Made by a program: the position numbers and the translations under genes. Source: Eledone cirrhosa (Eukaryota). Taken from it: DNA of 64,000 bases. The stretch is taken from NCBI GenBank assembly GCA_964016885.1, contig OZ024743.1:348130001-348194000 (forward strand), read 5' to 3'. Below, piece after piece: positions 4,903-63,428 of the stretch (position 1 is the stretch's first letter; each line of letters begins with the position of its first letter). The notes under the pieces are model-generated. The model had not been told where the DNA came from. It made no database searches and saw only the letters and a program-made list of their open reading frames with translations.

Positions 4903-5099
4903 GACTTACCATCCCATTCCTTCTAACTAGCCTCTGTGTCACGTGATTGATTCTTTAGAATCGGCCATTTGACTTGAAGCAGTGAGAATTTCGGTACATA
5001 GAATTCAGTCCTCGCAAGCTGTTCGATCTACCGAATTATTATTATTTTTATATGAGCCGCCAGTGTCCGCGCATTGCCTGGAGACTTAACTGAGAATAG

Positions 5100-5181
5100 A
5101 CTTCCTGATGACGCAATGAATTCTCGACAGTTGAATTACGTAACTGTCTTTATCCCATTGCAGAAACTAATTAGTTGGAGT
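5100..5181 (+). ncRNA. Type I hammerhead ribozyme (family B, copy 1)
   Basis: acttc-CTGATGA(5105)-c-gcaatg...cattgc-a-GAAA-ctaattag-TT-ggagt. Stem III is palindromic, and the predicted GUU cleavage is after 5176. Confidence 0.75.
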
Positions 5182-5659
5182 GAAAATTTAAGTAAGAAAA
5201 AAATTTTTTTTAAATTTTTTTTTTAAAAAAATATTTTTTTATTTTACGTCCTTTATATTATTGTTCTGCATTCTCCTGCATTGAACCACCTAGGTACTAT
5301 GACATAACCTGTGTATTTGTTGGCATGGGCGTGCATCTGTGCGCTTATGTTAGTTGATATATTAAATTATCTATATTTATCTCCAAATCACTGATTTGTC
5401 GAGCAAACTTGTCAAAACCACTTCTAAAAAAATTTTTTTTGGGGTGTTAGTAGGCGTCAGTCATCTTACCATCCCATTCCTTCTAACTAGCCTCTGTGTC
5501 ACGTGATTGATTCTTTAGAATCGGCCATTTGACTTGAAGCAGTGAGAATTTCGGTACATAGAATTCAGTCCTCGCAAGCTGTTCGATCTACCGAATTATT
5601 ATTATTTTTATATGAGCCGCCAGTGTCCGCGCATTGCCTGGAGACTTAACTGAGAATAG

Positions 5660-5741
5660 ACTTCCTGATGACGCAATGAATTCTCGACAGTTGAATTACG
5701 TAACTGTCTTTATCCCATTGCAGAAACTAATTAGTTGGAGT
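5660..5741 (+). ncRNA. Type I hammerhead ribozyme (family B, copy 2)
   Basis: Same motif 560 bp downstream. Predicted cleavage after 5736. Confidence 0.75.
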
Positions 5742-5929
5742 GAAAATTTAAGTAAGGAAAAAAATTTTTTTTAAATTTTTTTTTTAAAAAATATTTTTTT
5801 ATTTTACGTCCTTTATATTATTGTTCTGCATTCTCCTGCATTGAACCACCTAGGTACTATGACATAACCTGTGTATTTGTTGGCATGGGCGTGCATCTGT
5901 GCGCTTATGTTAGTTGATATATTAAATTA

Positions 5930-5962
<33 letters not shown>

Positions 5963-5964
5963 CG

Positions 5965-6016
5965 TTTCTGGTGCGTGTGTTTCTTATTGGCAACATGACC
6001 CTCCCAAAGTATAACA

Positions 6017-6018
<2 letters not shown>
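5965..6018 (+). mobile_element. Terminal fragment of a PLE-1 family pLTR in (TA)n
   Basis: gcgtgtgtttcttattggcaacatgaccctcccaaagtataac matches 53010-53054, 55897-55939 and the end of PLE-1 near 34695-34715. Confidence 0.7.
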
Positions 6019-6053
<35 letters not shown>

Positions 6054-6369: not shown

Positions 6370-6975
6370 TTATCTACTCCAACTATACGGTTGAGGCCAT
6401 GCTTGGGCACCGACCTTGTTGCTATTCGTTCTATCTCCAGCATATGTTGGCTGGCAATTGGTGTAAGAGGAAGTTCGTTGCTGCTGCCCTTCGTTTACCT
6501 TCATAGCATGCTGTGGGCTCATCCTGGATCCTGGATAGCAGAGTGTCACGATATTTCTTGAAAACATCCATGTCCACAACATGCAGATCTCTGAAATTTA
6601 TTTGCAGCTTGTTGAAGATTTGTGGGCTATTACAATATCTCTCGTTATTATAGATGTGAAAGATGGGACGTTTGACAGCTGGACCAACCCCCGAAAAGGG
6701 GGTTGGTCCAGTTGTCAATGCCAAGTTTGGTGCTAGTCTCTCCAGGATTTTCGATATGTATATCACTGCGTATTTCTCACTTCTTCCTTCCAATGAGTAG
6801 TTTCAGTCCTTTTAGCTTCCTGTAGCTCATCTCCTTCATTACGACCACAGTTGGGAGCAGTAGTCCAGTCGGCTTAGAACAAATTTCTTTCATAGTATCA
6901 GCATGATATCTCGCTTCTTGTCCGCACAGTCCTCAATATCCAGCTAGCGAGTCGTCTGCACATTGTCGCAACCTT
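6370..6975 (-). mobile_element. CR1-superfamily LINE 3' fragment, decayed
   Basis: The minus-strand peptides EKYAVIYISKILERLAPN and DLHVVDMDVFKKYRDTLLSRIQDEP match the element at 53165-54660. Confidence 0.8.
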
Positions 6976-7080
6976 TGTTTTTGCTGGACCGGCAATTGCT
7001 CTGTATAATCAGTTCCTGATTATTACTGGAATTCTATAAGAATGCAGCCTCTATAATTTTCAACAATGGTCGGCGAGTAC

Positions 7081-7126
7081 TAAGCTCTGATGAACACCAA
7101 CAGTGTGAAACAGATCTGTCAGCTTA
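7081..7126 (+). ncRNA. Canonical minimal type I hammerhead ribozyme
   Basis: taagct-CTGATGA-acac-caaca-gtgt-GAAA-cagatctg-TC-agctta. Stem I is 6 bp, stem II is 4 bp, stem III is palindromic, and the GUC cleavage site is after 7120. Confidence 0.9.
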
Positions 7127-7283
7127 TCTCCCTTGCTTTGTTGAAAAAAGAAGTATGTGTGTATGTCATTACTTTAAAATAATAGCCCAAAGTCTTCAAA
7201 GTGTTTTTAATTAAACATGCAGTATCTTGCCAAATATAGTATACATACGTTCATGTATACATCGCTATTGAAGAACACCAATC

Positions 7284-7348
<65 letters not shown>

Positions 7349-7454
7349 TATGAATATGAATGCAATTCAATTCAAGCACTACACGTCATGTTACTTCTTC
7401 TTCTTCAAATAAAAAAAGGACGACTGTGTATAATTAGAATGAGAAGGTAGCGAA

Positions 7455-7745
7455 CTTGTTGATGTTAAAGAGTCCTTTATTAATAAAGCCGATACATAGA
7501 TCAATGACGATCAATATCGTGATTCCATCAGACAGCAGAATTAAGTAAGAGGTTACGTTTCTGAGGCAACCATATGTGGAAAGGAGCAGCCTACAAAAAA
7601 ATAATGTTCTTGCTTGTGTTGTCCACTCGCTTGATACATATTACCATTTCCTCAATCTTGCTCTCTAAGGAAATCACGACATTGATCGTCATTGAAATAT
7701 GTATTACAACTTTATTAATAAAGGACTCTTTAACATTGACAGCAT
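7455..7745. repeat. Diverged inverted repeat; each arm holds a decayed HHR
   Basis: Arms are about 7455-7550 and 7645-7745 (gttaaagagtcctttattaataaag / ctttattaataaaggactctttaac). The arm consensus approximates gctgt-ctgatg-aatcacga...tcgtcatt-gaaa-tatgtatt-aca. Confidence 0.55.
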
Positions 7746-7769
7746 CGCATTTTCCCCATTCTGATATAT

Positions 7770-8704
<935 letters not shown>

Positions 8705-8929
8705 TGTGTGTGAGTGTGAGTTTAAGGAATTTAGTAAAGATTGATATACAAGTTTGGCAGGGAACCCAGTTCGATGGTTGAGTAGTAATATCGGTTAAAT
8801 TTGATGTGATAGGCAGATGAATATGTGAATTTTACCAGATTGTCTCTCTCTCTCTCTTTCTTTCTTTGTCTATCTATCTATGCCTCTATCTAACTCTCTT
8901 TCTCTTAATATATATTTATATGTATATAT

Positions 8930-9779
8930 ACAGTAGTATGTATATATATACATACATGCACACATATATATATATGTACGTATGGATTTACCGAACATTT
9001 ATTATAATGCTCGGTGTGTTTGTAAACAAACATCCCGAATTAAGCCGTACAGTGTCAAGCAACCATCGTTGCCCTTTTGTCAACACTGACAAAGGAATCA
9101 TGTCCTAGTTTCAAGCTTATTAGCTATCGTCAGCATCGTATACCTTCCTGCCCGATGATTAAACGTTTGAAAGTATATACTTTCCTTATGCATATTAACG
9201 GATGAGCAGCCTAATTTGCATATCGAGTGAGTTAATCGGCCGGGCGCACCGAAAACGATAAACGGAAAAAATGAAACTAAATTTCGTTTCTCACTCTTAG
9301 TACGGCTGTTACTTAAATATAAGTATGTATACGTACATACATATATGTATACAGACGTATAATAGTATGTATATATATACATACATGCACACATATATAA
9401 GGCTGCTCAGCCGTTATTATGCATAAGCAAAGTATATACTTTTAGACGTTCAATCATCTGGCAGGATGGTATACGTTGCTGACGATAGCTAATAAGCTTG
9501 AAACTAGTACATCGTTCCTTTGTCAGTGTTGAACAAAAGGGCAACAGTGGTTGCTAAATACTGTACGGCTTAATTCGGGATGTTTGTTTACAAACACACC
9601 GAGCATTATAATAAATGTTCGGTAAATCCATACGTACATATATATATGTGTGCATGTATGTATATATATATACATACTACTGTACGTCTGTATACATACA
9701 TGTATGTACGTATACATACATATATTTAAGTAACAGCCGTACTAAGAGTGAGAAACGAAATTTCGTTTCATTTTTTTCC

Positions 9780-9783
<4 letters not shown>
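8930..9783 (-). mobile_element. HHR-bearing non-coding element with a permuted body and an inverted arm (family C)
   Basis: 9400-9783 is inverted against both 8930-9212 and 9258-9399. Flanked by TA-rich tracts. Confidence 0.75.
9474..9514 (+). ncRNA. Type I hammerhead ribozyme (family C); decayed partner at 9098-9138 on the minus strand
   Basis: cgttg-CTGACGA-t-agct-aata-agct-t-GAAA-ctag-TA-catcg. Stem III is palindromic, with GUA cleavage after 9509. The other arm supplies a perfect stem I (cgatg). Confidence 0.75.
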
Positions 9784-9821
<38 letters not shown>

Positions 9822-9833
9822 TCATATATATAT

Positions 9834-9910
<77 letters not shown>

Positions 9911-9954
9911 TATATATAGAAATAAATACACATGTATATATATTTATATGTATG

Positions 9955-9986
<32 letters not shown>

Positions 9987-10683
9987 TGTATATACCTATA
10001 CACATATATGAACACATACATAAAGAGAAATATATCTGTTTGTACAATAATTATTCATGGACCTGATTTTGACATTTTACATAATACAATGATACATGTG
10101 TTAACAATATCTTTTTTTCATATATTATATTTGAAAATAAATCCCTCACTTTTCTTTCAAATCACTTTATAAAAAAAATATAAATCGGAAATATTAAACA
10201 AATATATATGTGAAAAAATGTTACCAATGTTCCGAACAAATATACATACTTCAACTTGTCAGAAACATTTTTGCCTAATACATATTAACGTAATTGACAT
10301 ATTTTAACGCAGAGAAGGAGACAAATGATTGTAAGCAGACACGCGATATACACATGTGCACTCACACACATGCACATGCACACACGGTAACACACAAAAT
10401 CTCATATATTTACGTGTGCAAATATATTTGTGTGTGTGTGTATTTGTGTGTATTTGGGAGTGTGTTTTCATATATACACACATATATATTTCTATATATA
10501 TCAGGATTAAACAGGTATTAAACTACATAGACAATCATTCATCAGAGCACTTGATACTTGAGACAGTTGAGTGTGACTTTATTAGATAGATTCGGGGCTC
10601 AACGGCTGAGCTCTTACCTTTTCGACAGCTGACCTAGAACTAAATGTCGAAACGGTCAAGCCCCGACTCATTCTAATATACAT

Positions 10684-11060
10684 ATATAATAGAAAAAAAC
10701 GAGGAAGTTTCGTTTACATATTAAAAAATATTTATTGTGTATCGACTAGTTACCGGAGGAGTTATGGAGCTGACTCCACTATCGATCTGCTCCTCAGTCT
10801 GGTGATGTGACAAACCTATATATTTTTGTTGTGGAAGGGTCGCTGCTTATATATATATATTTTCAACTCATATACGACAACAAAAATATGTTTTTGTCAC
10901 ACCACCAGTCTGAGGAGCAGGTCGATATTGGAGTCGGATCCATAACTCTTATGAGTGGCCTTGTGCTAATCCTCTGCGAAACGCACGCAACAGGTCGATT
11001 GCACACGATAAATATTTGTTTATATGTAAATGCAACTTCCTCGTGTTTTGCTATTATATA
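10684..11060 (+). mobile_element. Diverged inverted pair around a short (TA)n, with a long-stem-II HHR remnant at 10904-10995
   Basis: Arms are about 10684-10820 and 10876-11060. Motif: accagt-CTGAGGA-gcag...ctgc-GAAA-cgcacg-ca-acaggt. Confidence 0.6.
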
Positions 11061-11154
11061 CACACTGTTTTTACATAGAGTGCTTCATTTGGGACCAGCA
11101 CCAGCACCAGTAATTCACCGAACCAACAACACTACACTACACACATATATATAT

Positions 11155-11254
11155 AATATTTGCTCTACGGTTCTTATATATTTGATATATATTTATCCTT
11201 ATCGAGCCCTCTTTGGATTTTAGTCTTCAAATTTATTATTATTACTATTTTTAT

Positions 11255-11258
<4 letters not shown>
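11155..11258 (+). mobile_element. PLE-2 family 3' tail fragment
   Basis: Near-identical to 38232-38321 and followed by (TA)n. Confidence 0.85.
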
Positions 11259-11296
<38 letters not shown>

Positions 11297-12919
11297 TGTA
11301 CGGATTGAACTTGCCTTGCCTCGTCGTTATATATGTATAAGGAAAATGTATAATACGTTAACGCAATGGAAGCAGGGGAGAGGGAAATAAATATAGAAAA
11401 TTACAAGACACACCACCTGTTATACCAGACTACAAAGACAGTTACAATGAATTTGGAAGACACTTATTGTTAACACTGAGCCATTTAACTAACAGTAATC
11501 TATTTTTCATATTAGGCTGGGATTTAACAATTTTCGAAGAATTGGAGACGTCTAATTCTGTTGATAATAAATACTTGATCATATATTCCCGTGATTATGA
11601 TATACCGCTTAATCGCATTTATATATCATATAAACACGAAAGACAATTTCTTCACCAACATCACAATAACTACTGTTATCCATGGCTATCATCATGAGCT
11701 CACCAGCGGGCTTTTGGCTTTATATTATGAAAAATAACCTCTCTGCGTCAATCTATTTTTAAAGAAATATCTATCTGTAAAACCGTTCATGTAAATGACA
11801 ACTAAGTATGAAAAATACCTTTCGGTGCTAAGAAGTTAGATCGAATCTATAGACTGATAAATACTATATTCTGAACGGCAGCCTAGTTGTCGTGCGCATG
11901 TGTATTCAGCAGCAACTGAACTGAAGGTGAAATGTCATTGAATGTGCCGTATCCTTTCAGAACGATGTCAAAACAATGGCTCAAAAATCAGATTGGAAGG
12001 AACAATATTCTATTGTAACAACACAATTCTAATATACCAAAATATGCAGCCGCAATGGTAGGTCTCCGCCTCAAGTCTATTGTTACATTATCACTAAATC
12101 TATTGTTCATATAGCTGAAACAATGCAGATGCTACATGCACAAACATTCGAAAGGAAGATAATAGAACCTCCGGCTGAGTAAAAGAAAACATTCACTACA
12201 CTAACACTACAATAAATAGCTCACCATTTCTCTATACTCCTTTCTGTATATGTTATAACTACTACAGCGGTGCTCATCTGTACCAGCTAATCTTAATTGT
12301 ACTCAATGTATACATATGTGTTGTAATTCCTCCCAATTTTTTTACATTAATAAATACATCACAAATCGTACACAACAGATTTTCTACAACTATTTCTTTC
12401 TCGAATTGCAACTCTCTGGAGTTTTCTCCATTGCGACACGTCTCTAAGTACATCAAATTACATGATTTTTATCTGAATATAATGTACTTCAACCTGACGT
12501 ATTTGCTAAGCTTTCAACCGTCTTTTTAAAATCGAATAGAGAAACTCTTCTTAACACTTTCTACTGCTTGGAGACTAGGGCGATCTAGAAACTTGTTAAG
12601 TAAATCTACTTTTAGTGGGTCAACGTTAGAATATTATATATTTAGTATCGACAGTTGCTTTCAGAGATCTCTATTCTGCATAAGTACAACATTCAGAAAA
12701 GTTTCTTCATTTTACTAATAGGTAAAGTTATGTACTATATTTATTGTATCCCAAGGGGTTGCTATCAATTTCCTATACAGGGTTTGGCTTCATTCATACC
12801 AAATATGCAATTCCTTTGAAATTCATATTCCTTCTCGTCCATTTTAATTATATTTTCCAATGTTGTGATATAGATGTTTTAGTAGAAAATCCGTTGTGTA
12901 TTTGTGGATAGGAATACTA

Positions 12920-18472: not shown

Positions 18473-18600
18473 GTGGATTGGCAGTATCGGTAGGGGGTCG
18501 AGCACCTTGCTTTGAGTTCCGGCCCTTGCTATTCTGAGTTCAAATACCGCCGATGTTAAATTTGCCTTTCATCCTTACGGGGTCGATAAAATAAAGTACC
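18473..18600 (+). mobile_element. tRNA-derived SINE, 3' end interrupted
   Basis: A box tggcagtatcgg and B box gagttcaaatac, then the body cctttcatccttacggggtcgataaaataaagtacc. Seven copies occur in the window. Confidence 0.85.
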
Positions 18601-18601
18601 A

Positions 18602-18788
18602 ATAATTGTTTCTACTTTAGGCACAAGGCCAGCAATTACCCAGTGCATTACTGGTACTTTATTTTATCGACCCTGTAAGGATGAAAGGCAAAGTCAACCT
18701 CGGCGGGATTTGAACTCAGATCGTAAAGGGACGTAACTAAGCTGGAAAGCATGGCGTCCGACCCTCTACCGATACTGCCAATCCACCG
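18602..18788 (-). mobile_element. tRNA-derived SINE, full length, inserted tail-to-tail into the previous copy
   Basis: Reverse complement of the same family. taccaataat is repeated on both sides, which looks like a TSD. Confidence 0.85.
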
Positions 18789-20763: not shown

Positions 20764-21249
20764 TTATGTAATATTGTGATGTTTTTCTTTTGGCTAGAAC
20801 GGATGGCGTTGTCACCGATATTGGCATTAGTAGAAGGGGTAACACTCTTAGTGAATATAAACTATTATCTGGTGTGCTTTACATCCTAGAACGATCAGCT
20901 TGCTATCATCCCAGTTACCTTTGGAACGCCATCATTAGATTCCCTATCTGGAGTGCTTAGAATAATTCCCCTACATTGAACATACTCGATCGCATGAACT
21001 GCTTCTTGGACTAGAAATTGATGAGTCGGTCTCGCCTCTGATAAGGCCACACCAACGAATTTCTCTCCATTAACCTAAACTTCATATGAATCCGTAAATG
21101 TACACGCGAATGGTTTCTTTAACCAATTACTTACTTTTTAATTAATTAATTAATTACATTTTAACTGTCTACATACATTATAATTATAACTATTCACCTT
21201 TTATAACTCATTATAACTTTTTTTTATTATTATGATTATAATTATAAAA

Positions 21250-21442
21250 GGGTGGTGAATTGGCAATATCGGTAGAGCGCCAGACACCTGGCTTCACAGC
21301 ATGGAGTTACGGCGCTTTACGTTCTGAGTTCAAATCCCGCCGATATTAACTTTACCTTTCATCCTTACGAGGTTGATAAAATAAAGTACCAGTAATGCAC
21401 TGGGTATTTGCTGGCCTTGTGCCAAAAGTTGAAACAATTATT
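21250..21442 (+). mobile_element. tRNA-derived SINE, full length
   Basis: A and B boxes plus the same body and gaaacaattatt tail as the 18.5-kb copies. Confidence 0.85.
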
Positions 21443-21749
21443 TTAATTATTTATAACTGGATTCCTAATTTCTATTATCTTTGTAAACTCTACGGTTTTT
21501 ATAACGCTTTGCCTCACTAATTCTAATACTCTTTAATAGATTCACGGTCATGTTACGCTGACTTTCGGCCTGGGACTAAGACGGATATCAGATTATATGG
21601 GGCTCCCAGGCATTGTTAGATACATTAAAGATTTGGCTTTGGGTGGCTTTAGGACTGGTTAAAACCTTTCACTTATTTATCAATCTTTTTTGTTGAAGCA
21701 ATAAAATACTGAACATAAACACAGACGATGACACAAACCTAAACACACA

Positions 21750-23151: not shown

Positions 23152-23918
23152 GTATATATATATAAAGTTGTAGTTCCTGTCTGTTTGTTTGTTTATGAAC
23201 TCCTCCTATAGTTTTAGAGATAGACCCCCATAACCACATAAATTCTGAAACTACATTGCCCAGGGTATTGGATAAGTATATTTCATGTTAATCAATGTTT
23301 TCCTCGGGGGGCACTAACTCTAGTTGAAAACCCCGCTGAAACTTTTTCCCTTCAATTTATATGAAATTTAAACCATATATAAATTCCACGATATGATCCC
23401 CATTCACAAAATTTCATCAACTTTCAATAATACTAAGACACCGTAATGGGGGTTAAGCCCCCTATTAGGGTTACCCGGGGCGCACAAAACCCCGCTGGAA
23501 ATTGTTTCATTTCAATTGATATGAAATTTAAACGATAGGTAAATGATAAGATATGATGCCTATTCACAAAAGTTTTGAATTGCTATTTTGAACAACATTA
23601 TTTACAAGAAACAAACTAAGAATCAGATTTAATAATATAATTTGGATTTGATATATTACAAAAAATAAGTTTTCCTATTTTTCATGCATTACATGTTATA
23701 TTGAGTAATATTTGTTTCTACTTTTGGCACAAGGCCAGCAATTACCCAGTGCATTACTGGTACTTTATTTCATCGACCCCGTTGGGATGAAAGGCAAAGT
23801 TAACCTCGCGGGAAATATTGAAATGTAGAGTTTTTCTCCATAAATGATATCACTGATTTAAAATCAATCATCCTTTTCTTACGAAAAAAAGAACAAAAAG
23901 GCACGGGTAATTCGGCTA

Positions 23919-23919: not shown

Positions 23920-23946
<27 letters not shown>

Positions 23947-23953
<7 letters not shown>

Positions 23954-24143
23954 ATATAGAAATGCCCTTCTACAGGACTAGAATTGTTTCATCGTGAGAA
24001 ATCATCAGTGCCTAGTGATGATTTCTCCCGAATGAAACAGTTTCAGTCCTGTAGAAGCCATTTCTATATTAAATATTTATACTTTGCTATGTATTCAGTA
24101 CCTTACTTACTCTGGTTACCGCCGATTGAACGCGGGATAAACT
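23947..24143 (+). mobile_element. Family A palindromic mini-insert with HHR-like cores in both arms
   Basis: Inverted arms are about 23947-24007 and 24016-24075, plus a tail. The minus arm reads CTGATGA-tttctcacgat-GAAA-caattctag and the plus arm reads ctag-tgatga-t-ttc-tccc-gaa-t-GAAA-cagtt. Confidence 0.7.
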
Positions 24144-25843: not shown

Positions 25844-26032
25844 AATAATTGTTTCTACTTTAGGCACAAGGCCAGCAATTATCCAGTGCATTACTGGTAC
25901 TTTATTTTATCGACCCCGTAAGGATGAAAGGCAAAGTTAACCTCGGCGGAATTTGAACTCAGACCATAAAGGGACGTAACTATGCTGGAAAGCATGGCGT
26001 CCGACGCTCTACCGATACTGCCAATCCACCGC
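25844..26032 (-). mobile_element. tRNA-derived SINE, full length
   Basis: Near-identical to 18602-18788. Confidence 0.85.
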
Positions 26033-26069
26033 CTTTAACAACCTGTAGGATGAACAACAAACCTAGCAA

Positions 26070-29876: not shown

Positions 29877-29910
<34 letters not shown>

Positions 29911-29913
<3 letters not shown>

Positions 29914-30240
29914 ATAATAATAGTAATAATAATAAATGTGAAGACTAAAATCCAAAGAGGGCTCGATAAAGATAAATATATATCATATATATAAGAACCG
30001 TAGAGCAAATATTTATTAAAATAACAGATTAAAGTTTAAGCAAAGAATCGCTGCTTTCACCTTTAAAGGGATCTTTTAAAACTAACAAAGTCAATCTGTA
30101 AACGCAGAAGTCGATATTTCAAAAAACGTTGCAACCGGAGGGAAACAGGAAGACGATACTTTGGTTCGTAGAAACGTTCCCTGGCAAAGAACGGGAAAAA
30201 ATGAATAAATATACATATAAATATATATATAAATATAAAA
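29911..30240 (-). mobile_element. PLE-2 family pLTR fragment with tail
   Basis: Reverse complement of about 38030-38321. Abuts (TA)n. Confidence 0.85.
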
Positions 30241-30693: not shown

Positions 30694-30851
30694 TGTTTCA
30701 GAAGATCCCGTTCAGGGTGAAAGCAGCGATTCTTTGCTTAAACTTTAATCTGTTATTTTAATAAATATATGCTCTACGGTTCTTATATATTTGATATATA
30801 TTTATCCTTATCGAGCCCTCTTTGGATTTTAATCTTCAAATGTATTATTAT

Positions 30852-30855
<4 letters not shown>
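30694..30855 (+). mobile_element. PLE-2 family pLTR end with tail
   Basis: Matches 38162-38321 and lies between (TA)n tracts. Confidence 0.85.
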
Positions 30856-30922
<67 letters not shown>

Positions 30923-31069
30923 AATATATATATACATACATGATGGATGCAAACTCATATTCGAGCATTGCCACCACCCGATAGAATGCTAAAACAAACA
31001 TTAGGCATGAATTTGGCTCTTTAAACCAGCCCAAAACGTGTACCCTCTGATACACTCATGACAATTGTA

Positions 31070-31690: not shown

Positions 31691-31980
31691 GCTTTCTGTA
31701 TGTGATGATTATGAAGATTAATGGAGAATATAAAGCAAGGTCATTTAACTATAAAGCCTAAGACTACGCATGCACCCACACATGCACAATTATGCTTATG
31801 TCAGTGTTTTAGTTTTCGAAGCATGTTAAAATATGTTAAAGCTATTAATTGTATATAGTTGCGGTTTTTGAAAAGAAATATTTTTCCGAGCTATAGAGCA
31901 GTACTTTTAGTTATTTATCTTAAAAAAGATAAATATCTATATATAAATATATATACATACATATATAGATATATATATAC

Positions 31981-32089
<109 letters not shown>

Positions 32090-32152
32090 CATATATATAT
32101 ATACATATATATATATACATATACATATATACATATATATATATACATATAC

Positions 32153-32189
<37 letters not shown>

Positions 32190-32241
32190 CATACATATAT
32201 ATATATATTTACATATATATATATACATTTATATATACATT

Positions 32242-32273
<32 letters not shown>

Positions 32274-32274
32274 C

Positions 32275-32343
<69 letters not shown>

Positions 32344-32422
32344 CATATATATATATACATATATATATATACATATATATATATACATATACATATATAC
32401 ATATATATATATATACATATAC

Positions 32423-32479
<57 letters not shown>

Positions 32480-33478
32480 CATATATATATATATATACAT
32501 ATATATATAGTTATACTTGGGGAGGGTCATATTTGCGTAATATTGCCAGAATAAATAACAGAACACACTCACTGTTTGGTTGGTTTTCGCTTCTCGCTGT
32601 CTTTTATTATATCTGCGATCTAACTTACTCGGTCCTCAATGTTGCCATTGACTGACCGGCGGTCAAAAATAATACAGATACAATATAGACACAAACACAT
32701 ATATATATATATAGTTTACATAATTTACATAAATCTTTCGTTGCACATCTGCAACATCGTCAGTGGTGTTATATTCATTGTTCCTCCTGTTGTGTTGTAT
32801 GTCTACGCCATTTTTTTTTGTTCAGTCTGTCTATATATTTATTTATTTATTTGCTTGTTTGTTTATCTTATTTTATTTGTCTTCTTTGCGCATGCGTTTG
32901 CGTGTGTGTATAGTGTTATGTGTGATGTGTGACTAGTGTGTATAGTGTTGTGTCTGCTGGGTGACTAGTGTGTGTTTATGTGCTTGTTGTTATTGTGCTT
33001 GTGTATGTATTTATTTATCTTATTTTATTTAATTTTATTTACTTATTTATACTTCTCTTAGGTCAGTGTTGTTTGTTTAGGTGTTGTTGTTGTTCCACTC
33101 ATTCTTTCTGTTTAGCTTTGGTCTTCTAATTTCTATTTCACTGGCCTCTCTGATTTGCCTATCTGCTGGGTCATTCCTATGTTTAGATATTATTCTAATT
33201 TCTATGTTGTCTATGTTACCGTCATGTTGTTGTCTAGCATGTTCGTATAGTACTGACCCGTTTTTTCGTCCTTTTAGTTCCCCCCAGTGTTGGTCTATCC
33301 TTTCACCTATGCTACGAGCTGTCTCACCTATGTATGTTGTTGTCATGTTTCTGCAAGTACCCTCTGTACATCTTATGCTATAGACTACGTTTCTAGTTTT
33401 ACAGTTTATCCGGGGTTCACCTTACATATGATACAATTCCTATTGGTACAGTGGGTTTTCTTAAAAGGGTAGGTTTTA

Positions 33479-34147
33479 GAAAAGTATAAGACCCTCATAG
33501 AACTGGACATGAAAGGAATCTGCCCACTATACAGGAGCAAATCATGGAATAGCTTAGATAGGGCTAGACATAAGATAGGGAAGGCCACATCATGGTACGA
33601 CAACCAGAGATATCAGAGTGTCATGTTTGTGGACGCCACCCCTGGAGGGAAATTAGCTAACCAGTGTAGAAAGGCCCTGAGAAAGACCCACTTAAAAATA
33701 AAGGTGGTAGAAAAGCCAGGAACCACCATAAAATCCCTGATCAGCAAAACCTACCCTTTTAAGAAAACCCACTGTACCAATAGGAAGTGTATCATATGTA
33801 AGGTGAACCCCCGGATAAACTGTAAAACTAGAAACGTAGTCTATAGCATAAGATGTACAGAGGGTACTTGCAGAAACATGACAACAACATACATAGGTGA
33901 GACAGCTCGTAGAATAGGTGAAAGGATAGACCAACACTGGGGGGAACTAAAAGGACGAAAAAACGGGTCAGTACTATACGAACATGCTAGACAACAACAT
34001 GACGGTAACATAGACAACATAGAAATTAGAATAATATCTAAACATAGGAATGACCCAGCAGATAGGCAAATCAGAGAGGCCAGTGAAATAGAAATTAGAA
34101 GACCAAAGCTAAACAGAAAGAATGAGTGGAACAACAACAACACCTAA
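33479..34147 (+). CDS. PLE ORF C-terminus: RT thumb remnant, Cys-rich linker and GIY-YIG endonuclease (5'-truncated)
   Basis: Open frame from 33479. Motifs: CTNRKCIIC, NVVYSIRC...YIGETAR.IGER..QH, RQIREA, LN. Confidence 0.9.
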   Translation, partial: EKYKTLIELDMKGICPLYRSKSWNSLDRARHKIGKATSWYDNQRYQSVMFVDATPGGKLANQCRKALRKTHLKIKVVEKPGTTIKSLISKTYPFKKTHCTNRKCIICKVNPRINCKTRNVVYSIRCTEGTCRNMTTTYIGETARRIGERIDQHWGELKGRKNGSVLYEHARQQHDGNIDNIEIRIISKHRNDPADRQIREASEIEIRRPKLNRKNEWNNNNT

Positions 34148-34455
34148 ACAAACAACACTGACCTAAGAGAAGTATAAATAAGTAAATAAAATTAAATAAA
34201 ATAAGATAAATAAATACATACACAAGCACAATAACAACAAGCACATAAACACACGCTAGTCACCCAGCAGACACAACACTATACACACTAGTCACACATC
34301 ACACATAACACTATACACACACGCAAACGCATGCGCAAAGAAGACAAATAAAATAAGATAAACAAACAAGCAAATAAATAAATAAATATATAGACAGACT
34401 TAACAAAAAAAAAATGGCGTAGACATACAACACAACAGGAGGAACAATGAATATA

Positions 34456-34498
34456 ACACCACTGACGATGTTGCAGATGTGCAACGAAAGATTTATGT
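34456..34498 (+). ncRNA. Minimal HHR in the PLE-1 pLTR; mirror copy at 32728-32765 on the minus strand
   Basis: ca-CTGACGA-t-gttgca-gatg-tgcaac-GAAA-gatt-TA-tg. Stem I is weak. Confidence 0.7.
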
Positions 34499-34793
34499 AA
34501 ATTATGTAAACTATATATATATATATGTGTTTGTGTCTATATTGTATCTGTATTATTTTTGACCGCCGGTCAGTCAATGGCAACATTGAGGACCGAGTAA
34601 GTTAGATCGCAGATATAATAAAAGACAGCGAGAAGCGAAAACCAACCAAACAGTGAGTGTGTTCTGTTATTAATTCTGGCAATATTACGCAAATATGACC
34701 CTCCCCAAGTATAACAATATCTGTTTCGACACACGATTTCATATAAAAAACCTCGCAAAACTAATTCATCGCCGCCATATATATATATACATT

Positions 34794-34879
<86 letters not shown>

Positions 34880-34930
34880 CATATATATATATTTTATATA
34901 TATATATATACATATATATATATACACATA

Positions 34931-34962
<32 letters not shown>

Positions 34963-35013
34963 CATATATATATATACATATATATATATACATATATATA
35001 TATATACATATAC

Positions 35014-35044
<31 letters not shown>

Positions 35045-35045
35045 C

Positions 35046-35123
<78 letters not shown>

Positions 35124-35124
35124 T

Positions 35125-35289
<165 letters not shown>

Positions 35290-35290
35290 T

Positions 35291-38200
35291 ATATTTATTA
35301 AAATAACAGATTAAAGTTTAAGCAAAGAATCGCTGCTTTCACCCTTAACGGGATCTTCTGAAACTAACAAAGTCAATCTGTAAACGCAGAACTGGATATT
35401 TCAAAAAACGTTGCAACCGGAGGAAGACAGGAAGACGATACTTTGGTTCGTGGAAACGTTCGCTGGCAAAGAACGGGAAAAAACGAATAATACGTCATTA
35501 ATAGGAGCGGTGAAAAACAATTACGTGCAAAGACAGAACCACGTTTATGGTATAAAAGAGGTCGTAGACTAATGTTCTCTTAGGTGGTGCATAGAGACGT
35601 TATCTGGCAATGAACGAAAAAACGAAGATAATAAGTCATATGTGGAGCGTGGAGAACAATAGCACGCAAAGACAAAACCACGTAAACGGTATAGCAGAAG
35701 TCGTAGACTAAAATACTAACTAGGAGACCAAATGAATCTCCGCTACAGAGTTAAGAACAAAGTAAATAAATACAATACAGAAGTAATAGAAATAAATAAA
35801 TACATACACGCAAACAGATACGTACATACACAAGCATCCGCAAAACCTTACCATAGGTATACGAAACCACGCACATATAAATATGTGTGTGTATGTATGC
35901 TTGTGTACAAAGAAATAAATAATTATATAAACGTATATAAGTAAATAAATACGTATATAACAAGCGCACGCACATACCTGCGAATAAATACACGAAAGTT
36001 CGGAGACGTAAGTCAACTAAAACAAGAAGTACACATATACACACACCCACCATACGTACGAACCTGCATACTCACGCAGACGCAAAACTCCCGTATACAC
36101 ATATCTAAAGCCTAAATACCAGAATATGTAAAAATTCCCCAACGCGGGCGGTGGTTTGTACCGTGACGATGGTCTTTTGACCATGACTAAGTGCGGACCT
36201 CGTCCTTGCGACAGGTTCAGAAAAGAACTCACAGCCTTCTTTAAAGGCTTCAACCTCTCTATACAGGTTGAGGACAATCTCTCGGTCGTTAATTACCTCG
36301 ACGTTAACCTCAATTTATTGAATGGGTTGTATTACCCGTATAGAAAGCCGAATGATACGCTTATTACATAAGTAAGCATTCCAACCATCCTGCCAGCATA
36401 ACCAAGAACCTGGTAAAAAACGTTTCGTTGAGGCTTTCCCGTCTTTCCACCAACGAGCGCATTTTCAACGACCATTCCACTTATTACAATGAAGCTCTTG
36501 CTCGAAGTGGATTTGTCGATAAAGTAGCTTATACAGAGTACGAAAATAGACCTAGAAGAAATAGATCCCGTCGCATTTGTTGGTTTAACCCACCATATAA
36601 TATGGAGGTGGCCACACCATTAGCTAAGATCTTTCTTTCCCTTATTACGAAGCATTTTCCCCCTACACATAAATATAGTAAAATTTTTAATAGAAATACT
36701 ATTAAAATGTCTTACTCTACGACTCCTAACCTTGCACATAATATCACAGCTTCAAAGTTAGCTAAACTACCTAGCCGTAGGAACACGTGCAACCCTGTAG
36801 TTAGTACTAACTGTAATTGTAGGAATCGGGCTGATTGCCCCCTATCCGGGAAATGCCTCTCTAGTAACTTTGTCTACAAATGTAAGGTTGTAACACCCAC
36901 GTCCCGTAGGGCCTACATAGGGTTAACCGCCAATAGTTTCAAGCAGTTTCCTTTCGTTACCCTCTAAGAAGGAATATGACGTCACTTTCAGCTTATATCT
37001 GGAGTCTAAAAGACAACCACACCCAATATAAGTTACACTGGGAGATCCTAGCTAGGGCTAGATCGTATTACGGAAATAAAAGACCATGTGACCTCTGCGC
37101 CGCTGAGGCCCTGGAATTATTCTACGCCACAGACCACATCTTAAACAAAAAATCCAAGGCAATTTCGGCTTGTAAACATAAATTGCACAAAACTTTCCTG
37201 TATTACAGCCCCACTTTATACCCCACCGGATAGCACGATCTATACGTGGATATTTTACGTCTTGATGCGGGAGCTAAGTATATGTTTTGTTTATTCCTTT
37301 ACTTATTTGCATAGGTAAGTATATATTACCCGTATGTTTTGTGAAGATTGTATACCTTCTCGTACGTATATTTGACTGTTATGGCGAATAATTTTTACAT
37401 ATTCTGGTATTTAGGCTTTGGCTATGTGTATACGGGAGTTTTGCGTCTGCGTGAGTATGCAGGTTCGTACGTATGGTGGGTGTGTGTATATGTGTACTTC
37501 TTGTTTTAGTTGACTTACGTCTCCGAACTTTCGTGTATTTATTTGTAGGTATGTGTGTGCGCTTGTTATATACGTATTTATTTACTTATATACGTTTATA
37601 TAATTATTTATTTATTTGTACACAAGCATACACACACACACATATTTATATGTGCGTGGTTTCGTATACCTATGGTAAGGTTTTGCGGATGCTTGTGTAT
37701 GTACGTATCTGTTTGCGTGTATGTATTTATTTATTTCTATTACTTCTGTATTGTATTTATTTACTTTGTTCTTAACTCTGTAGCGGAGATTCATTTGGTC
37801 TCCTAGTTAGTATTTTAGTCTACGACTTCTGCTATACCATTTACGTGGTTTTGTCTTTGCGTGCTATTGTTCTCCACGCTCCACATATGACTTATTATCT
37901 TCGTTTTTTCGTTCATTGCCAGAGAACGTCTCTATGCACCACCTAATTGAACATTAGTCTACAACCTCTTTTATACGATAAACGTGGTTCTGTCTTTGCA
38001 CGTAATTGTTTTTCACCGCTCCTATTAATGACATATTATTCATTTTTTCCCGTTCTTTGCCAGCGAACGTTTCCACGAACCAAAGTATCGTCTTCCTGTC
38101 TTCCTCCGGTTGCAACGTTTTTTGAAATATCCAGTTCTGCGTTTACAGATTGACTTTGTTAGTTTCAGAAGATCCCGTTAAGGGTGAAAGCAGCGATTCT

Positions 38201-38318
38201 TTGCTTAAACTTTAATCTGTTATTTTAATAAATATTTGCTCTACGGTTCTTATATATTTGATATATATTTATCCTTATCGAGCCCTCTTTGGATTTTAGT
38301 CTTCAAATTTATTATTAT

Positions 38319-38321
<3 letters not shown>
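35291..38321 (+). mobile_element. Penelope-like element PLE-2 (Nematis type), 5'-truncated with an 846-bp inverted arm
   Basis: Arms are 35291-36136 and 37390-38235, with an 86-bp unduplicated tail. The pLTR has an internal tandem duplication of about 140 bp. (TA)n lies on both sides. Confidence 0.92.
36138..37233 (+). pseudogene. PLE RT (YRDD) and GIY-YIG endonuclease, frameshifted
   Basis: Motifs: GLYRDDGL, VNYLDV, PYRKPN, WFNPP, CNC....CPL.G.C, VYKC...YIGLT, CDLC..E. The frame breaks near 36370 and 36950. Confidence 0.9.
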
Positions 38322-38357
<36 letters not shown>

Positions 38358-40280: not shown

Positions 40281-41246
40281 AACACCTTCCCATTCTCACT
40301 AAGCGTTACTCCTGCGTTTGTTTGCTTGTCATTTTGAACTACATATATATATATATATTTTATTACTAAATATATCTAAATGTTTCTTCTCTCTTCATAA
40401 TGTATTTTTAACTCTGATACTGGTTCAGTCTAGTTCAACCGGATTGGTCTGTCCCAGTCATTCATTGAGCAACATCGGTGAGGTTGGCACCCTTAACTCA
40501 CGGTTGGGTGTGGATGCATTCATGTATATGTGTGTGTCCGCATGTATCTGTGTGTTTCTATATATATTGTTAATAACTCCCTCTGGTCGAGTAATCTTTG
40601 AAGTGTGGTGACTGCTGGAAGGCTTCCATTACTCATACTTCTCGCCTCCAACACCACCTCTTCTACGGCTTCGATATAAATACCCCTCCGCCTCCGTGGT
40701 ATTTTCTTCGGGGTTATAAGAGGCTTAGCTCTGTTTCTCGACCGTTATATCCCGTGACTATCTCCCCCTCCGCCTTTTGGGATTCTTTCTCACGTCGTGT
40801 AGACGCGTTCTTGAGGCTAGTAAAATGAGGTATCCTCTTGATAAGTCGGCAGACCTCGCAAGGACTCTATATCTTTATGATGTATTGTTTTTTTTATGCC
40901 AGGAAACTACGTAGTCGAGGAATCTAGGAGCAGTTTAGGTATGATACATTTTATTACTAATTATATCTAAATGTTTCTTCTCCCTTCATAATGTATATAT
41001 ATATATATATACCAATGAAAATTCAACTGATAAGGTATGGTTTCGTTGGCTATGTCAACATTTATAAAACACTCTTTGTATTTTATTTGATGAAAGCGTA
41101 CCAAAGTTTTTGGTACCTTTAAATATATATAATAGAATAAATATGGTTTTATACATATAGTTTCCATCAGAAATTTGTCAAGTGCTCTGAATTTGTTATA
41201 AACATTTATATTTGTTGAATTTCCAACAAATTAAATATCCCTTCTA

Positions 41247-41608
<362 letters not shown>

Positions 41609-43329
41609 TGTGTGTGTGTGTGTGGTTGGGTGCGTGTGTAGAATTATAACTTAGCTGCGAACATACCTTTTTTACAAATATGTATCTGAATTTCGTATTT
41701 CTAAAGAAATATGGTATGTTTATAAATGAACATTTACAGCGCCAGAGCTATGAATAACACACTGGCAGTTAACGCCACCAGGCGGTGCCCGACAGAAGCA
41801 GGGGAGATAATCGTCAATGCATTTCGAACTCAACTGGTTCTCGTCAGGATGATCTCTCCCTCTCTTGCAACTGCCGGACGAATCTGTATAAGTTGTTTCA
41901 ACTTATAATAGAATAAGGTTTGCTTCTAGTACCGGTTTCACCTTAGCGCACTCTGTTGGTAAGGTTATATACAATAGAATTGAAGCAATCGGCTCTAGTC
42001 TCCATGTACACTGGTGAATACGGTGCGACAGTAAACAATGGTAGTGTTGAAAACCTTTCCGGACATTAAATTCCAACAGGCAAGTAGATAGCAATATAGA
42101 ATTAATATGCTGGCTAGAATTCGATTTCGGGATATTTTGACCAAGCACGTGCGTAAACCCGATCAATTTCACAACTTATACGAATATAGGTGAGCGAGAG
42201 AAAAAGATAGAGCAGGGATTAGAGTGTATATTGAACAAAACAATAAAACATGTGGAAAATTGCTCAACGTACTCTCATTTGAATCTGCTAGTTGGGAGAA
42301 AATAATAATAATAAGTTGACGGGACTACATAAGGTTTCCCTGCTAGTACCTGTTGCATTTTAGCGTACTCAATAGTGAAGTTTATGTAAAAACCCCACAG
42401 TAACACGAAGTCATTTGCCTCAATACGACACACGTATATGGGTACCATAAACTTATAACCGTACTCTAATTTCGTCCACACTTAATGCAGCAAGAGAGCG
42501 TACAGCATTCATTGTCTTCATTTTATTATGCAGTAATGCACAATCGGCGCATGTGGCTTCATCAACGGGTCTCGCCTAATCAATAACCGACAGAATTCGA
42601 TTCCAGGCCGTGCCGCCTATGGCAGTAAATGCGACAGACGCCACAGTAGTACATTTGTAACTGAAATTCCTTCGCGCCATCAAAATACCGTCAACCGTTT
42701 GGTCACTAGTTCAGAAATTTACCTGATAGTAGGAGTCGATGTTCTATTCTTCGGCCGCTCCATAAGAACTCAACCAACATATCTCAAGTCAAACACAAAT
42801 TCATAAGGTAGTGAAAAAAATCCAGTTATTAGAGAAAATCTGTCTCGAATCGCTGTACAATAGAATGGTAGCATTCGGCTTTCAGTCTAATGATAAAATA
42901 ATTATATATATTTATACATACACATTTGGTTCCCACACTTTTTTTCCATGTTTACACACAATGATTCACGCAAATACTGTCCTCTTTTCACTTGGTAGGT
43001 ATTCTGATATATATTTCAACATCTGCTACTTCCTTTATACACTAAGTGTATATACATGCATTCATTCATATATTCCTATCGTATACTCATTTACGAGAAC
43101 ATGTCATTTCATCAAACCATTTAAATGCATCTATGTATCATAACCTTTTTAACAGTTACCCACACACATCCCCCCCCCATGTCTTTCGATCCCTATCTTT
43201 GTTACTTTTTCTCCCCAGCTCTTATCTCCTTCCAGTCACTGCATCTTAACGACACCTATGTTCATGCAATTTATCTATATGATTCTACGTCGCTGAGAGC
43301 GTACATACATAAATGCTGATTGTTATTTC

Positions 43330-44691: not shown

Positions 44692-45990
44692 AAGTTCCAC
44701 ATCAACAGTGACATAGACCGCCATTACTTAAACGTAAGCAGGGAGGCAGAGGCCTAACATCAGTCCAGACAACATTTGAATGTCGCATCATATCTCTCCT
44801 ACAACATCTACGAACCTCGAAGCGTAGGAGCCCGTTTCTCTAGCAAGTCTATCTGCATGAAACAGAAAAGATCATGAGAGTTGGGAAGGAACTCCTCGAG
44901 AAATATTCCCTGTGAGATAATCAAAAACTCACACCCAGGGAAGTCGCTCAGCAGTATCGCAGTGAATCCATGGATGAAAAACTGCATGCTTATCAGCAAA
45001 AAATCATGCATGGATTTGTTGCCAGGAAGCTCTAGAGTGAGAGTAATATAGATAAGGAAAGTAGTCTAACTTGGACCAACAACCGCTATATTGGCTCCCA
45101 CTTTGAAGGATACGCTTTTACAATCCAGGAACAAGAGATTAACACGAAATACCTGATTCACAAAAGAGATAGGGATGCAGGCAAAACACCTAGATGTGAT
45201 AACAAGTGCAAACTCGGCAGAACTAACATCGAGGATATCACCCATGTCATCAGCAGCTTTCCAAAGATGTCATCGCGGTACTATCTACCTATGAGGCATG
45301 ATGTAGTGGCTAAAAACACCGTACAATACAGTTCGTAAAATAGATAGCCCCAATAATAAACACATTAAAAGCTACAGCAATGTGGAAGTCATCCATGTAC
45401 ATAATATGAAAGAGTACTGGTGGAATGTTCCAGTAAAAACTCCAATAAAATGCAGGTATAACAGACCAGATATTATGATATCTGACAGGGAGAAGAAAGC
45501 ATGCACAGTAGTGGAAATTAGCTGCCCAGCAGATGCCAATATAATATCAAAGATTAGTGAAAAGGAGAATATTAATGCAGAACTGATGAGAAATCTGCAA
45601 ATACTCCACCCTGATTACACCTTCAGATTTATGCCTCTGATTACTGGGGCATTGGGGTATGTTAGTAACTGCCTCAATACAAATCTGGAGAAGCTAAGCT
45701 TCACAGGAACAGAAAAAACACAAGTTAGGAAATTACAAGTACAATCCATTAATGGAACAGTAACAATTTTGCATCTAATAACTGCATATACACATGTACA
45801 GATACAAAGCATATACACATGCACACATACAACTCAAAACATACATATCCACGCATACAATAACATCCATATCTACACATGCATGATTACATACATATCT
45901 ACCTAGTTGATGTTGTGTAAATTCCAATGAAAGAGTCTTGTGTCTATGTTAGAAACCGACTCTCTCTCTATTGGTTAAACTTTGTGAAAT
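44692..45990 (+). mobile_element. R4/Dong-like non-LTR 3' fragment inserted in (TACA)n
   Basis: LKRKQGGRGL, MHGF, IQEQEI, decayed CCHC, RHD, NRPDIMI...VVEISCP, IT.GALG. (CATA)n lies on both flanks. Confidence 0.85.
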
Positions 45991-51647: not shown

Positions 51648-52084
51648 CGTAAAATAAGAAAATTATAAAATTAACTTACTTACTAAAATTTCACTCCAAC
51701 TAATTAGTTTCTGAAAGGGAATAAACATACTTTCCGAAGAAACATACGGAGAAGCCTTTCGTCATCAGGGAAGTCTATTCTCAGGTAAGTTTCCAGGCAA
51801 TACGTGGACACTTATACAAAAATAATTCAGTGGATGGAAAAAAGCAAAGCGTGGACTAAATTCCAAGCCATTGAGAAAATCACTGCCTACTGCGTCGGTG
51901 GCAAATTCAAAAGAATCAATCACGTAACATCGAGGTCAATCAGTGAAAAAGTGGTTTGTTAAGAAGACAGCAGCCGGACTGTTACTATAGTAGCAGTTTT
52001 GGCCAATTTTTGCTCGACAAAACAATTTGGAGTTAATTATAAAGAATTAGTATATCGAGTAACATATTACTAGATATACTAATT

Positions 52085-52090
<6 letters not shown>
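51645..52090 (-). mobile_element. Family B diverged copy, differently permuted, with a 19-bp inverted arm
   Basis: Homologous to about 5347-5810, crossing the tandem junction. gatatactaattctttata near 52072-52090 inverts about 52038-52056. Confidence 0.75.
51693..51774 (-). ncRNA. Type I hammerhead ribozyme (family B, copy 3)
   Basis: Minus strand: ttcc-CTGATGA-c-gaaagg...cctttc-a-GAAA-ctaattag-TT-ggag. Confidence 0.8.
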
Positions 52091-52574: not shown

Positions 52575-53113
52575 ATAACAAAGACCAATGCGTAAGTTAT
52601 CAGGTGGACCATAACACACCAGAGTACTCCATACTTAAGGTAGTAGACTAGGTAATAGGAAAAGAGTCAGGACCTCGAACAACACACACACATAGAACAA
52701 ACAACCAACCAGTAACATGTAAATAAACAAATAAATAAACAAATAAAAACACACACAGACATCCGGATGTAACACATGCGCAAACTAAGCACACAACACA
52801 CACAAAAACAAGATGGCGTAGCACAGAAAAAAGGAAAGGCACAAAGCAAAGAAAATAATCCCCAGTCACTGAAGAGGTCACAGACTGTGTGACGAAAGAA
52901 CTTTGACAATATATGAACAACCGTCCGGTTATAGAACCAACCAACCGGAAATTTATAAATTCTTAAATTTATAAATTTAATTTATAATAAATTGGAGTGA
53001 AAGCAACTGGTGCGTGTGTTTCTTATTGGCAACATGACCCTCCCAAAGCATAACAATATCGGTTTCAAAATACGTTTTCAGATAAAGAATCTTGCTAAAC
53101 AAATTCAGAAACG
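52575..53113 (+). mobile_element. PLE-1-related pLTR with tail, in (TA)n
   Basis: AC-rich region, HHR, then atgaccctcccaaagcataacaatatc and a tail homologous to 34716-34776. Confidence 0.8.
52865..52907 (+). ncRNA. Minimal HHR in a PLE-1-related pLTR
   Basis: gtca-CTGAAGA-g-gtcaca-gactg-tgtgac-GAAA-gaac-TT-tgac. Confidence 0.8.
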
Positions 53114-54660: not shown

Positions 54661-54662
54661 TA

Positions 54663-54711
<49 letters not shown>

Positions 54712-61578: not shown

Positions 61579-61662
61579 ATAATTGTTTCTATTTTTAGGC
61601 ACAAGGCCAGCAATTACCAATACATTACCGGTACTTTATTTTATCGACCCCGTAAGGATGAA
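61579..61662 (-). mobile_element. Truncated SINE 3' part
   Basis: Same family as 18602-18788. Confidence 0.8.
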
Positions 61663-63274: not shown

Positions 63275-63308
<34 letters not shown>

Positions 63309-63310
63309 CA

Positions 63311-63428
63311 TAATTGTTTCTACTTTTGACACAAGGCCAGCAATTACACAGTACATTACTGGTACTTTATTTTATCGACCCCGTAAGAATGAAAGGCAAA
63401 GTTAACCTCGGCGCGATTTGAACTCAGA
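63311..63428 (-). mobile_element. Truncated SINE
   Basis: Same family. Ends just past the B box. Confidence 0.8.

Follow-up and report, generated by a model that had tools for sequence, protein, structure and literature searches.

The permuted 429-bp repeat at 8929-9784 is probably the decayed insertion of a 429-nt, non-coding non-LTR retrozyme (a non-autonomous Penelope-like element, PLE) bearing a hammerhead ribozyme (HHR), likely pasted into a (TA)n microsatellite by the reverse transcriptase (RT) and GIY-YIG endonuclease borrowed from a PLE. A period of 429, a permuted segment order, a head-to-head inverted copy, and two 3' ends in TA repeats 100 nt apart are read directly in the DNA. Also read there are an HHR motif in each copy and the lack of any open reading frame (ORF) related to the neighboring PLE protein. 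The locus lies in a window of 64,000 nucleotides, the whole stretch of DNA that was analyzed. The window is AT-rich (GC 0.21-0.40), with 112 tandem-repeat rows that include many microsatellites, and fragments of retroelements are present.

The locus consists of a main copy on the minus strand and an inverted arm on the plus strand. A self-BLAST of 8801-9900 gave one inverted match of 9397-9698 with 9215-8919 (90.8%, E 5e-117) and a second of 9641-9785 with 9399-9258 (94.5%, E 6e-59). Alignments and end mapping give a repeat period of 429, with 9399 aligned to 8970. The main copy (8929-9399) has 471 nt, or 1.10 units, in the minus-strand order B-C-A-B', and the 5'-truncated arm (9400-9784) has 385 nt, or 0.90 unit, in the plus-strand order A-B. 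On the minus strand, segment B (9259-9399, 141 nt) is an upstream partial unit that ends with ccgttta at 9259. It is the equivalent of a pseudo-LTR in the main copy, and simple sequence rich in TA/TG makes up about 90 nt of it. Segment C (9213-9258, 46 nt) starts with tcgttttcgg and is found in the main copy only. It is predicted to pair with the stretch directly 5' of the HHR, and it has no second match within the 64-kb window. Segment A (8971-9212, 242 nt) carries the HHR at 9133-9103. A second pass into the start of B follows (8929-8970), giving a terminal redundancy of about 42 nt that ends at the 3' end of the main copy. This redundancy is TA-rich, with 37 consecutive identical positions, and because it is so short the permuted order rests on the comparison of the main copy with the arm. 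The main copy is 5'-truncated at 9399, and its 3' end is at about 8929, or about 8919 if a 4-nt gap is allowed in the alignment. The copies are joined head to head at 9399/9400, and no microhomology is visible.

The original prediction described a permuted HHR unit of about 430 bp that combines tandem read-through with an inverted arm, and the self-BLAST and alignments bear this out with a period of 429. Its reading of the minus strand was also correct: ccgttta ends at 9259 and runs into the unit start at 9258 and on into the HHR, and the return to the start sequence near 8930-8975 is found at 8970-8929, which repeats the start of B. The arm does halt where ccgttta meets (TA)n, but its last unit base is 9784 and not the predicted 9783. 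Two features were absent from that account, namely that the main copy stops 100 nt short of the arm's end and that the direct redundancy amounts to about 42 nt.

The two copies end at different points in TA repeats, suggesting that two priming sites were used. The arm has an apparent tail of 100 nt (9685-9784, plus strand by end mapping) beyond the 3' end of the main copy. Published PLE tails are 30-40 nt, compared to this extension of 100 nt, and the neighboring families have 62 and 87 nt. On the right is a (TA)n microsatellite of about 190 bp from the tandem-repeat listing (9785-9974), the likely target, and a short TA-rich left flank (8907-8928) is likely the other half of it. The TAT at 9783-9785 is compatible with unit and microsatellite alike. 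Since TA repeats are found on both flanks, a TSD is unreadable. It is also conceivable, if quite improbable, that there was one fixed 3' end at ccgttta, with a main copy of 1.33 units that later lost 100 bp by slippage in TA-rich sequence, or with an arm formed by fold-back before the loss. The 8929 end does lie within a TA-rich stretch, TA flanks it on either side, and its position is ambiguous by about 10 nt. However, paired 3' ends, separated by 62, 87, and 121 nt, occur in three other families of the window, and one of these families has them in several copies. For the arm, a simple fold-back origin is disfavored: it reaches 100 nt farther than the main copy does, and complementarity is absent at the inner junction; this absence also argues against the fold-back variant of later loss, which would need it for priming.

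Under the preferred reading, insertion with two-site priming, a tandem source locus elsewhere would have been transcribed into an RNA longer than one unit. The PLE enzyme would nick both (TA)n strands, and each nick would prime internal reverse transcription, 175 nt and 275 nt downstream of the HHR site. One cDNA, of 471 nt, would cross the uncleaved HHR into the upstream unit, and the other would be 385 nt long. The two truncated cDNAs would then be joined at their growing ends, with both copies decaying after insertion.

The structure of the longer copy indicates that the template exceeded one unit, since this cDNA crosses the HHR site into the upstream unit. Neither copy shows a scar where the HHR would cleave, and the order B-C-A-B in one copy versus A-B in the other without such a scar implies either a template of more than one unit or a precise template jump. 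The smallest linear RNA covering both copies is B-C-A-B, with 570 nt or 1.33 units. There is close to an even chance that the template was a linear read-through RNA that had escaped cleavage and spanned 1.33 units or more. A linear RNA, a circle, and a template jump would all give the same DNA at this locus. The original prediction favored a multimeric or circular template. A template of more than one unit or a precise jump is indeed needed, but the linear RNA of 570 nt suffices. That prediction also treated ccgttta as a unit end whose crossing points to a multimer or circle, which is not supported: the end is defined only by the arm meeting (TA)n, and any PLE tail reads across such a point. 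Rather than a ligation point, ccgttta is probably one member of a pair of priming sites separated by 100 nt. It is at the HHR site, which lies 275 nt upstream of ccgttta, that a junction would be informative about a circle.

Rolling-circle copying departs from the best explanation in the template only, and it is a realistic but doubtful alternative. Dimeric HHRs would cut intact family loci to 429-nt monomers, which would be ligated, and the PLE RT would make 1.1 rounds of the circle. Both copies read through the HHR site seamlessly, as expected from a circle, and a stable, self-paired circular fold is predicted for the unit (-124 kcal/mol, z -6.3, 66% paired, with 0 of 60 shuffles as stable). 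The antisense unit folds about equally well (z -5.6 and -5.3), hence the stability is not strand-specific. For the non-repetitive 326 nt of the unit the fold z is -4.1, a value reached by two of 59 non-repetitive background windows. Coral, mussel, and axolotl express retrozymes of like size as circles (PMC7229834; here and below, papers are cited for what their accessible text states), and a circular template was proposed for PLEs in 2014 (PMC4209133). On the other hand, a 570-nt linear RNA accounts for both copies. HHR mutants of the single PLE examined in vitro insert normally, with uncleaved RNA as the dominant substrate (PMC11167929), and only one of nine Xenopus dimers was cleaved in vitro (10.64898/2026.07.22.740005). 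In addition, the 44-column overlap has too few informative sites to prove a single template molecule.

A template jump is unlikely, and would make the ccgttta/tcg junction a real, recurrent joint. A linear RNA of about one unit would start at C, and the RT, once at the 5' end of this RNA, would jump to a second RNA at the ccgttta priming site and add 141 nt. The upstream partial unit does end exactly at the arm's end, and fixed 3' sites are reused by the neighboring PLE families. However, the coincidence of the ends is built into the definition of C as the part missing from the arm, and the junction has no recognizable untemplated bases. In published PLEs, as described in PMC3846280, the element simply continues past the tail and there is no start site.

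Both copies contain a type I HHR motif, and both motifs appear to have decayed. HHR positions such as 16.1 and 10.1 are numbered according to standard usage. The arm HHR (9458-9527, plus strand) passes the type I descriptor. Its core CUGACGA (9479-9485) is followed by a U-U mismatch and a 4-bp helix II with an AAUA loop, GAAA, and a palindromic ACUAGU helix III; the cut is predicted after 9509, and helix I has a 6-nt bulge and two U-U mismatches. The main-copy HHR (9085-9152, minus strand) fails the descriptor. It keeps the CUGACGA and GAAA boxes and helix II; position 16.1 (9104) is G and not U, and the 3' strand of helix I is altered at two positions (9099 and 9098). The two mismatches in the arm's helix I are at positions that are paired in the main copy. 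The G16.1 and broken helix I strand of the main copy, together with the helix I mismatches of the arm, indicate that both HHRs are decayed. The unit had been predicted to carry an HHR, and a motif is found in each copy, but the core is intact only in the arm. The G10.1-C11.1 pair is missing, with U-U in both copies instead; U-U at the base of helix II is known from the axolotl retrozyme HHR_Amex2 (PMC7229834).

As a prediction from its sequence, the arm motif fits a canonical metazoan type I HHR. Canonical metazoan type I HHRs have a helix III of 1-2 bp with a palindromic loop of 2-4 nt, and those with a short palindromic helix III are thought to act as dimers (PMC4209133). In the arm, the helix I bulge and the AAUA loop could be partners in a loop 1-loop 2 tertiary contact. 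The active-like fold of the arm HHR is calculated to cost 8.8 kcal/mol for the monomer and 5.7 for the dimer, and for the HHR at 7087 these costs are 4.0 and 0.0. In the unconstrained co-fold of the arm, helix III pairs between the strands, but the core pairs with a downstream segment. The 71-nt HHR segments of both copies fold no better than shuffles (z -0.2 and -0.6). The window has 19 loose CUGAnGA..GAAA matches. The full type I descriptor accepts three of them (9479+, 7087+, and 41847-), and each of these has a palindromic helix III. No match to this descriptor, which was composed after the arm motif had been seen, turned up in 100 simulated windows.

It is very improbable that the locus is no ribozyme element at all and consists of microsatellite-rich DNA duplicated locally in inverted orientation, with a CUGA-GAAA motif that arose by chance, or of an assembly artifact. 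Rfam does offer this reading some support, as it gave no match at the gathering score over the whole window and, at E<=10 over 6500-11500, called neither copy of the unit a hammerhead. A third copy of the unit is also missing from the 64-kb window. Against this, the full HHR topology with a palindromic helix III was found in none of the 100 simulated windows, the copies differ by 3.5-6%, and the segment order is permuted rather than mirrored. The divergence rules out a collapsed or duplicated assembly artifact. The Rfam search at E<=10 over 6500-11500 gave 97 matches, mostly microRNA models on TA/TG repeats, which were discarded as compositional. Its sole hammerhead match was HH9 at 7069-7142, with 25.3 bits versus a cut-off of 52 (E 0.004). 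That region contains a clean type I HHR (7068-7135, plus strand) with an extended palindromic helix III, for which the dimer fold is the minimum-energy structure; no repeat partner of it was detected within the window. At 41816-41847 (minus strand) is another type I HHR, the third, whose helix III is also palindromic and whose distal helix I is like that of the motif at 7087. Four more CUGAnGA..GAAA boxes are found at 63526-63549 and 52869-52897 (plus strand) and at 24008-23987 and 62104-62085 (minus strand), some with a plausible helix II, and all fail the full descriptor.

The unit is non-coding. Its length of 429 bp and GC content of 0.36 are within the retrozyme range (150-450 bp, GC below 50%). 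The longest frame has 98 codons, lies partly across simple repeat, and is interrupted by a stop in the arm. A tblastn search with two neighboring PLE-type proteins found no match in 8900-9800, which rules out a coding remnant. There is no sequence link between the unit and the neighboring PLEs in the 64-kb window by blastn with word size 7 or by nhmmer of the 326 nt. ARAGORN found no tRNA genes, a result still compatible with a degenerate tRNA-derived SINE head. The 26-nt HHR pattern had no exact matches in prokaryotic contigs and the 326 nt had no match in phage records, both of which are weak negatives for a eukaryotic repeat.

The differences between the two copies are clustered. All comparisons of the unit are based on two copies at one locus. 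Segment B and the arm at 9641-9785 have five mismatches in 142 columns. In the other alignment (arm 9410-9559 versus main copy 9202-9054 for the clustered part), all 17 substitutions in 281 columns are within the first 159, the half with the HHR, and the next 122 columns are identical. The clustering has a p of 0.00075, or 0.026 without the TA-rich part, both being post hoc values. The inverted pairs of the two neighboring PLEs differ by 0.5% and 1.8% and have no such clustering. Two template variants, gene conversion, or chance are possible causes. No selection on structure is seen between the copies, with a mean pairing probability of 0.52 at the 17 differences versus 0.62 overall.

Two PLE-type elements in the window have insertion structures similar to that of the 429-bp unit. 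Each has an inverted copy of its own 3' end on its 5' side and (TA)n at both outer ends, and one copy in each pair ends 62 or 87 nt beyond the other. The first is a 5'-truncated element at 31943-35298 with an inverted arm 0.5% diverged, a 62-nt tail, and an endonuclease-like ORF end at 33473-34147 with a CxxxxCxxC linker. This ORF end is 57% identical to an 803-aa Octopus vulgaris protein labeled RT-domain-containing in its source, one of two matches among 329 candidates. This is the single named homolog of any neighboring ORF, and it makes an octopus-like host probable. In Pfam the octopus protein has only a sub-threshold RVT_1 match (E 0.004). Short fragments related to the element are found at 5960-6020 and 53007-53107, along with a diverged ORF fragment at about 55047-55563, and cores like a minimal HHR are found at 34462 (plus strand) and 32763 (minus strand), both failing the descriptor. 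The second family, also 5'-truncated, is at 35167-38357, and its 3' ends fall at two fixed sites in (TA)n with 87 nt between them. Further sites are at 11155-11296, 29881-30208, 30695-30943, and 41245-41567, including a short inverted copy. Five 3' ends of this family, the query included, are at the distal site and two at the proximal site, and the copy at 11155-11246 is almost pure tail. An HHR-like box at about 38166-38190 has A instead of U4. The ORF at 36356-36967 is placed in Atlas clusters at 0.95, with GIY-YIG in 18-27% of the members. By eye, both endonuclease-type ORF ends have what appear to be GIY-YIG and Zn-finger-like motifs. Pfam gave no convincing name to six neighboring ORFs, both endonuclease fragments included.

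Several other repeats are found in the window. A 560-bp non-coding unit at 4905-5940 is present in 1.85 tandem copies that are 99.8% identical, between (TA)n runs, and has a degenerate CUGAUGA box that fails the descriptor. It is probably the family B with which the 429-bp unit had been compared, and the two units have no sequence in common. A diverged minus-strand relative at about 51650-52090, with about 70% identity, continues across the end point of the 560-bp unit (score 63, compared to at most 31 in 300 shuffles) and comes to a stop 121 nt short of that point. The 429-bp locus had been proposed to repeat the family B pattern independently. The parallel read-through in an unrelated unit is there, but what it shows is a common PLE mechanism and not circularity. 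A partial tandem at 7765-8597 has 138-bp direct repeats (96%) with a period of 695 bp and ends in (TA)n about 330 bp from the 429-bp locus. No HHR was found in it, and it is possibly another non-autonomous PLE. A dispersed SINE- or MITE-like repeat of about 190 bp has at least six copies (18473-18788, 21248-21455, 23707-23814, 25844-26036, 61575-61662, and 63295-63429), one of which makes a long palindrome at 18473-18786. Long imperfect, MITE-like palindromes are found at 10683-11060, 7462-7736, and 23942-24081. ORF fragments at 6420-6839, 53861-54665, and 45307-45906 resemble the C-termini of LINE reverse transcriptases by eye, and Pfam gave them no convincing name.

The class of element, the layout of its insertion, and the idea of a circular template have all been published before. 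What is added here is a unit that lacks ORFs and shows the whole PLE insertion signature, located next to autonomous PLE fragments that share that signature. The relevance is modest: short copies of this kind bear on the source of PLE partial tandems, whether circles, uncleaved multimers, or template jumps. A literature search covering mostly open papers found no report of cephalopod or octopus retrozymes; the supplement of PMC7229834 or bioRxiv supplements may list some. A repeat annotation of O. vulgaris has 31 recently active PLE families, and the word "ribozyme" is nowhere in its main text as available (PMC13282606). A bolder interpretation, which is rather unlikely, is that a cephalopod retrozyme family is expressed as a 429-nt HHR-processed circle and that this single insertion combines rolling-circle read-through with two-strand, two-site PLE priming from two RNA variants. 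If true, it would provide insertion-site evidence that PLE enzymes mobilize retrozyme circles, which has so far been argued from co-occurrence and pLTR phylogeny.

The unit itself resembles metazoan non-LTR retrozymes. It shares with them a non-coding unit of 150-450 bp, GC below 50%, a type I HHR with a palindromic helix III, a self-paired predicted circle, and PLEs alongside (PMC7229834; 10.64898/2026.07.22.740005). A 2026 preprint uses co-occurrence and pLTR phylogeny to argue that the retrozymes of animals belong to the non-autonomous PLEs (10.64898/2026.07.22.740005), and a circle model has also been published for retrozymes (PMC7229834). Active retrozymes are described as having at least two head-to-tail HHR units, unlike this locus, where the direct units number 1.10 and each strand has a single HHR. 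With a single HHR on each strand the locus is unable to release an HHR-to-HHR monomer by itself, and because it lacks the tandem of two HHRs it is filed as a probable dead derivative of a retrozyme family rather than an active one. Retrozyme families are described as having monomeric derivatives (10.64898/2026.07.22.740005). The inverted arm and the apparent tail are present here, and the available text of PMC7229834 and 10.64898/2026.07.22.740005 has no description of them for retrozymes. Plant LTR retrozymes are likewise HHR-bearing non-autonomous retroelements, with circles as their product (PMC7229834; 10.64898/2026.07.22.740005). As described, they have a type III HHR, true LTRs, PBS/PPT, and a 4-bp TSD, whereas the HHR here is type I and there are no true LTRs. 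Non-LTR retrozymes are described as lacking PBS/PPT, with a TSD, when present, longer than 4 bp.

The insertion resembles those of PLEs. Like the Chlamys PLEs of the MRC1 type, the element is non-autonomous, with pLTRs, head-to-tail insertions, and microsatellite targets (PMC8557442). The Chlamys elements are green-algal, mostly without a canonical HHR, and have a 3' end similar to that of an autonomous partner (PMC8557442), unlike the 429-bp unit, for which no autonomous partner was found within the window. Compared to EN+ PLEs as described, the locus has no RT or GIY-YIG ORF, its period is 429 bp and not about 3 kb, its apparent tail is 100 nt and not 30-40 nt, and its HHR is of the canonical type, while theirs is a minimal form with an extra base before G10.1. 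PLE insertions are known for a partial tandem, an adjacent inverted 5'-truncated copy, a tail at one end, and a bias for (TA)n or other microsatellites (PMC8557442; PMC3846280). The AT-rich DNA cut by one purified PLE protein is extended on both strands. Synthesis begins at two sites inside the RNA, downstream of the HHR, and these set the tail; uncleaved RNA serves as substrate, with HHR cleavage dispensable (PMC11167929). As in EN+ PLEs (Penelope/Poseidon, Neptune, Nematis), the locus has a partial tandem, an inverted 5'-truncated copy at the 5' end, an apparent tail on one copy, a (TA)n target, and 3' ends downstream of the HHR (PMC8557442, PMC3846280, PMC11167929), and it has two HHRs on opposite strands a few hundred base pairs apart, as described for EN+ PLEs in PMC4209133.
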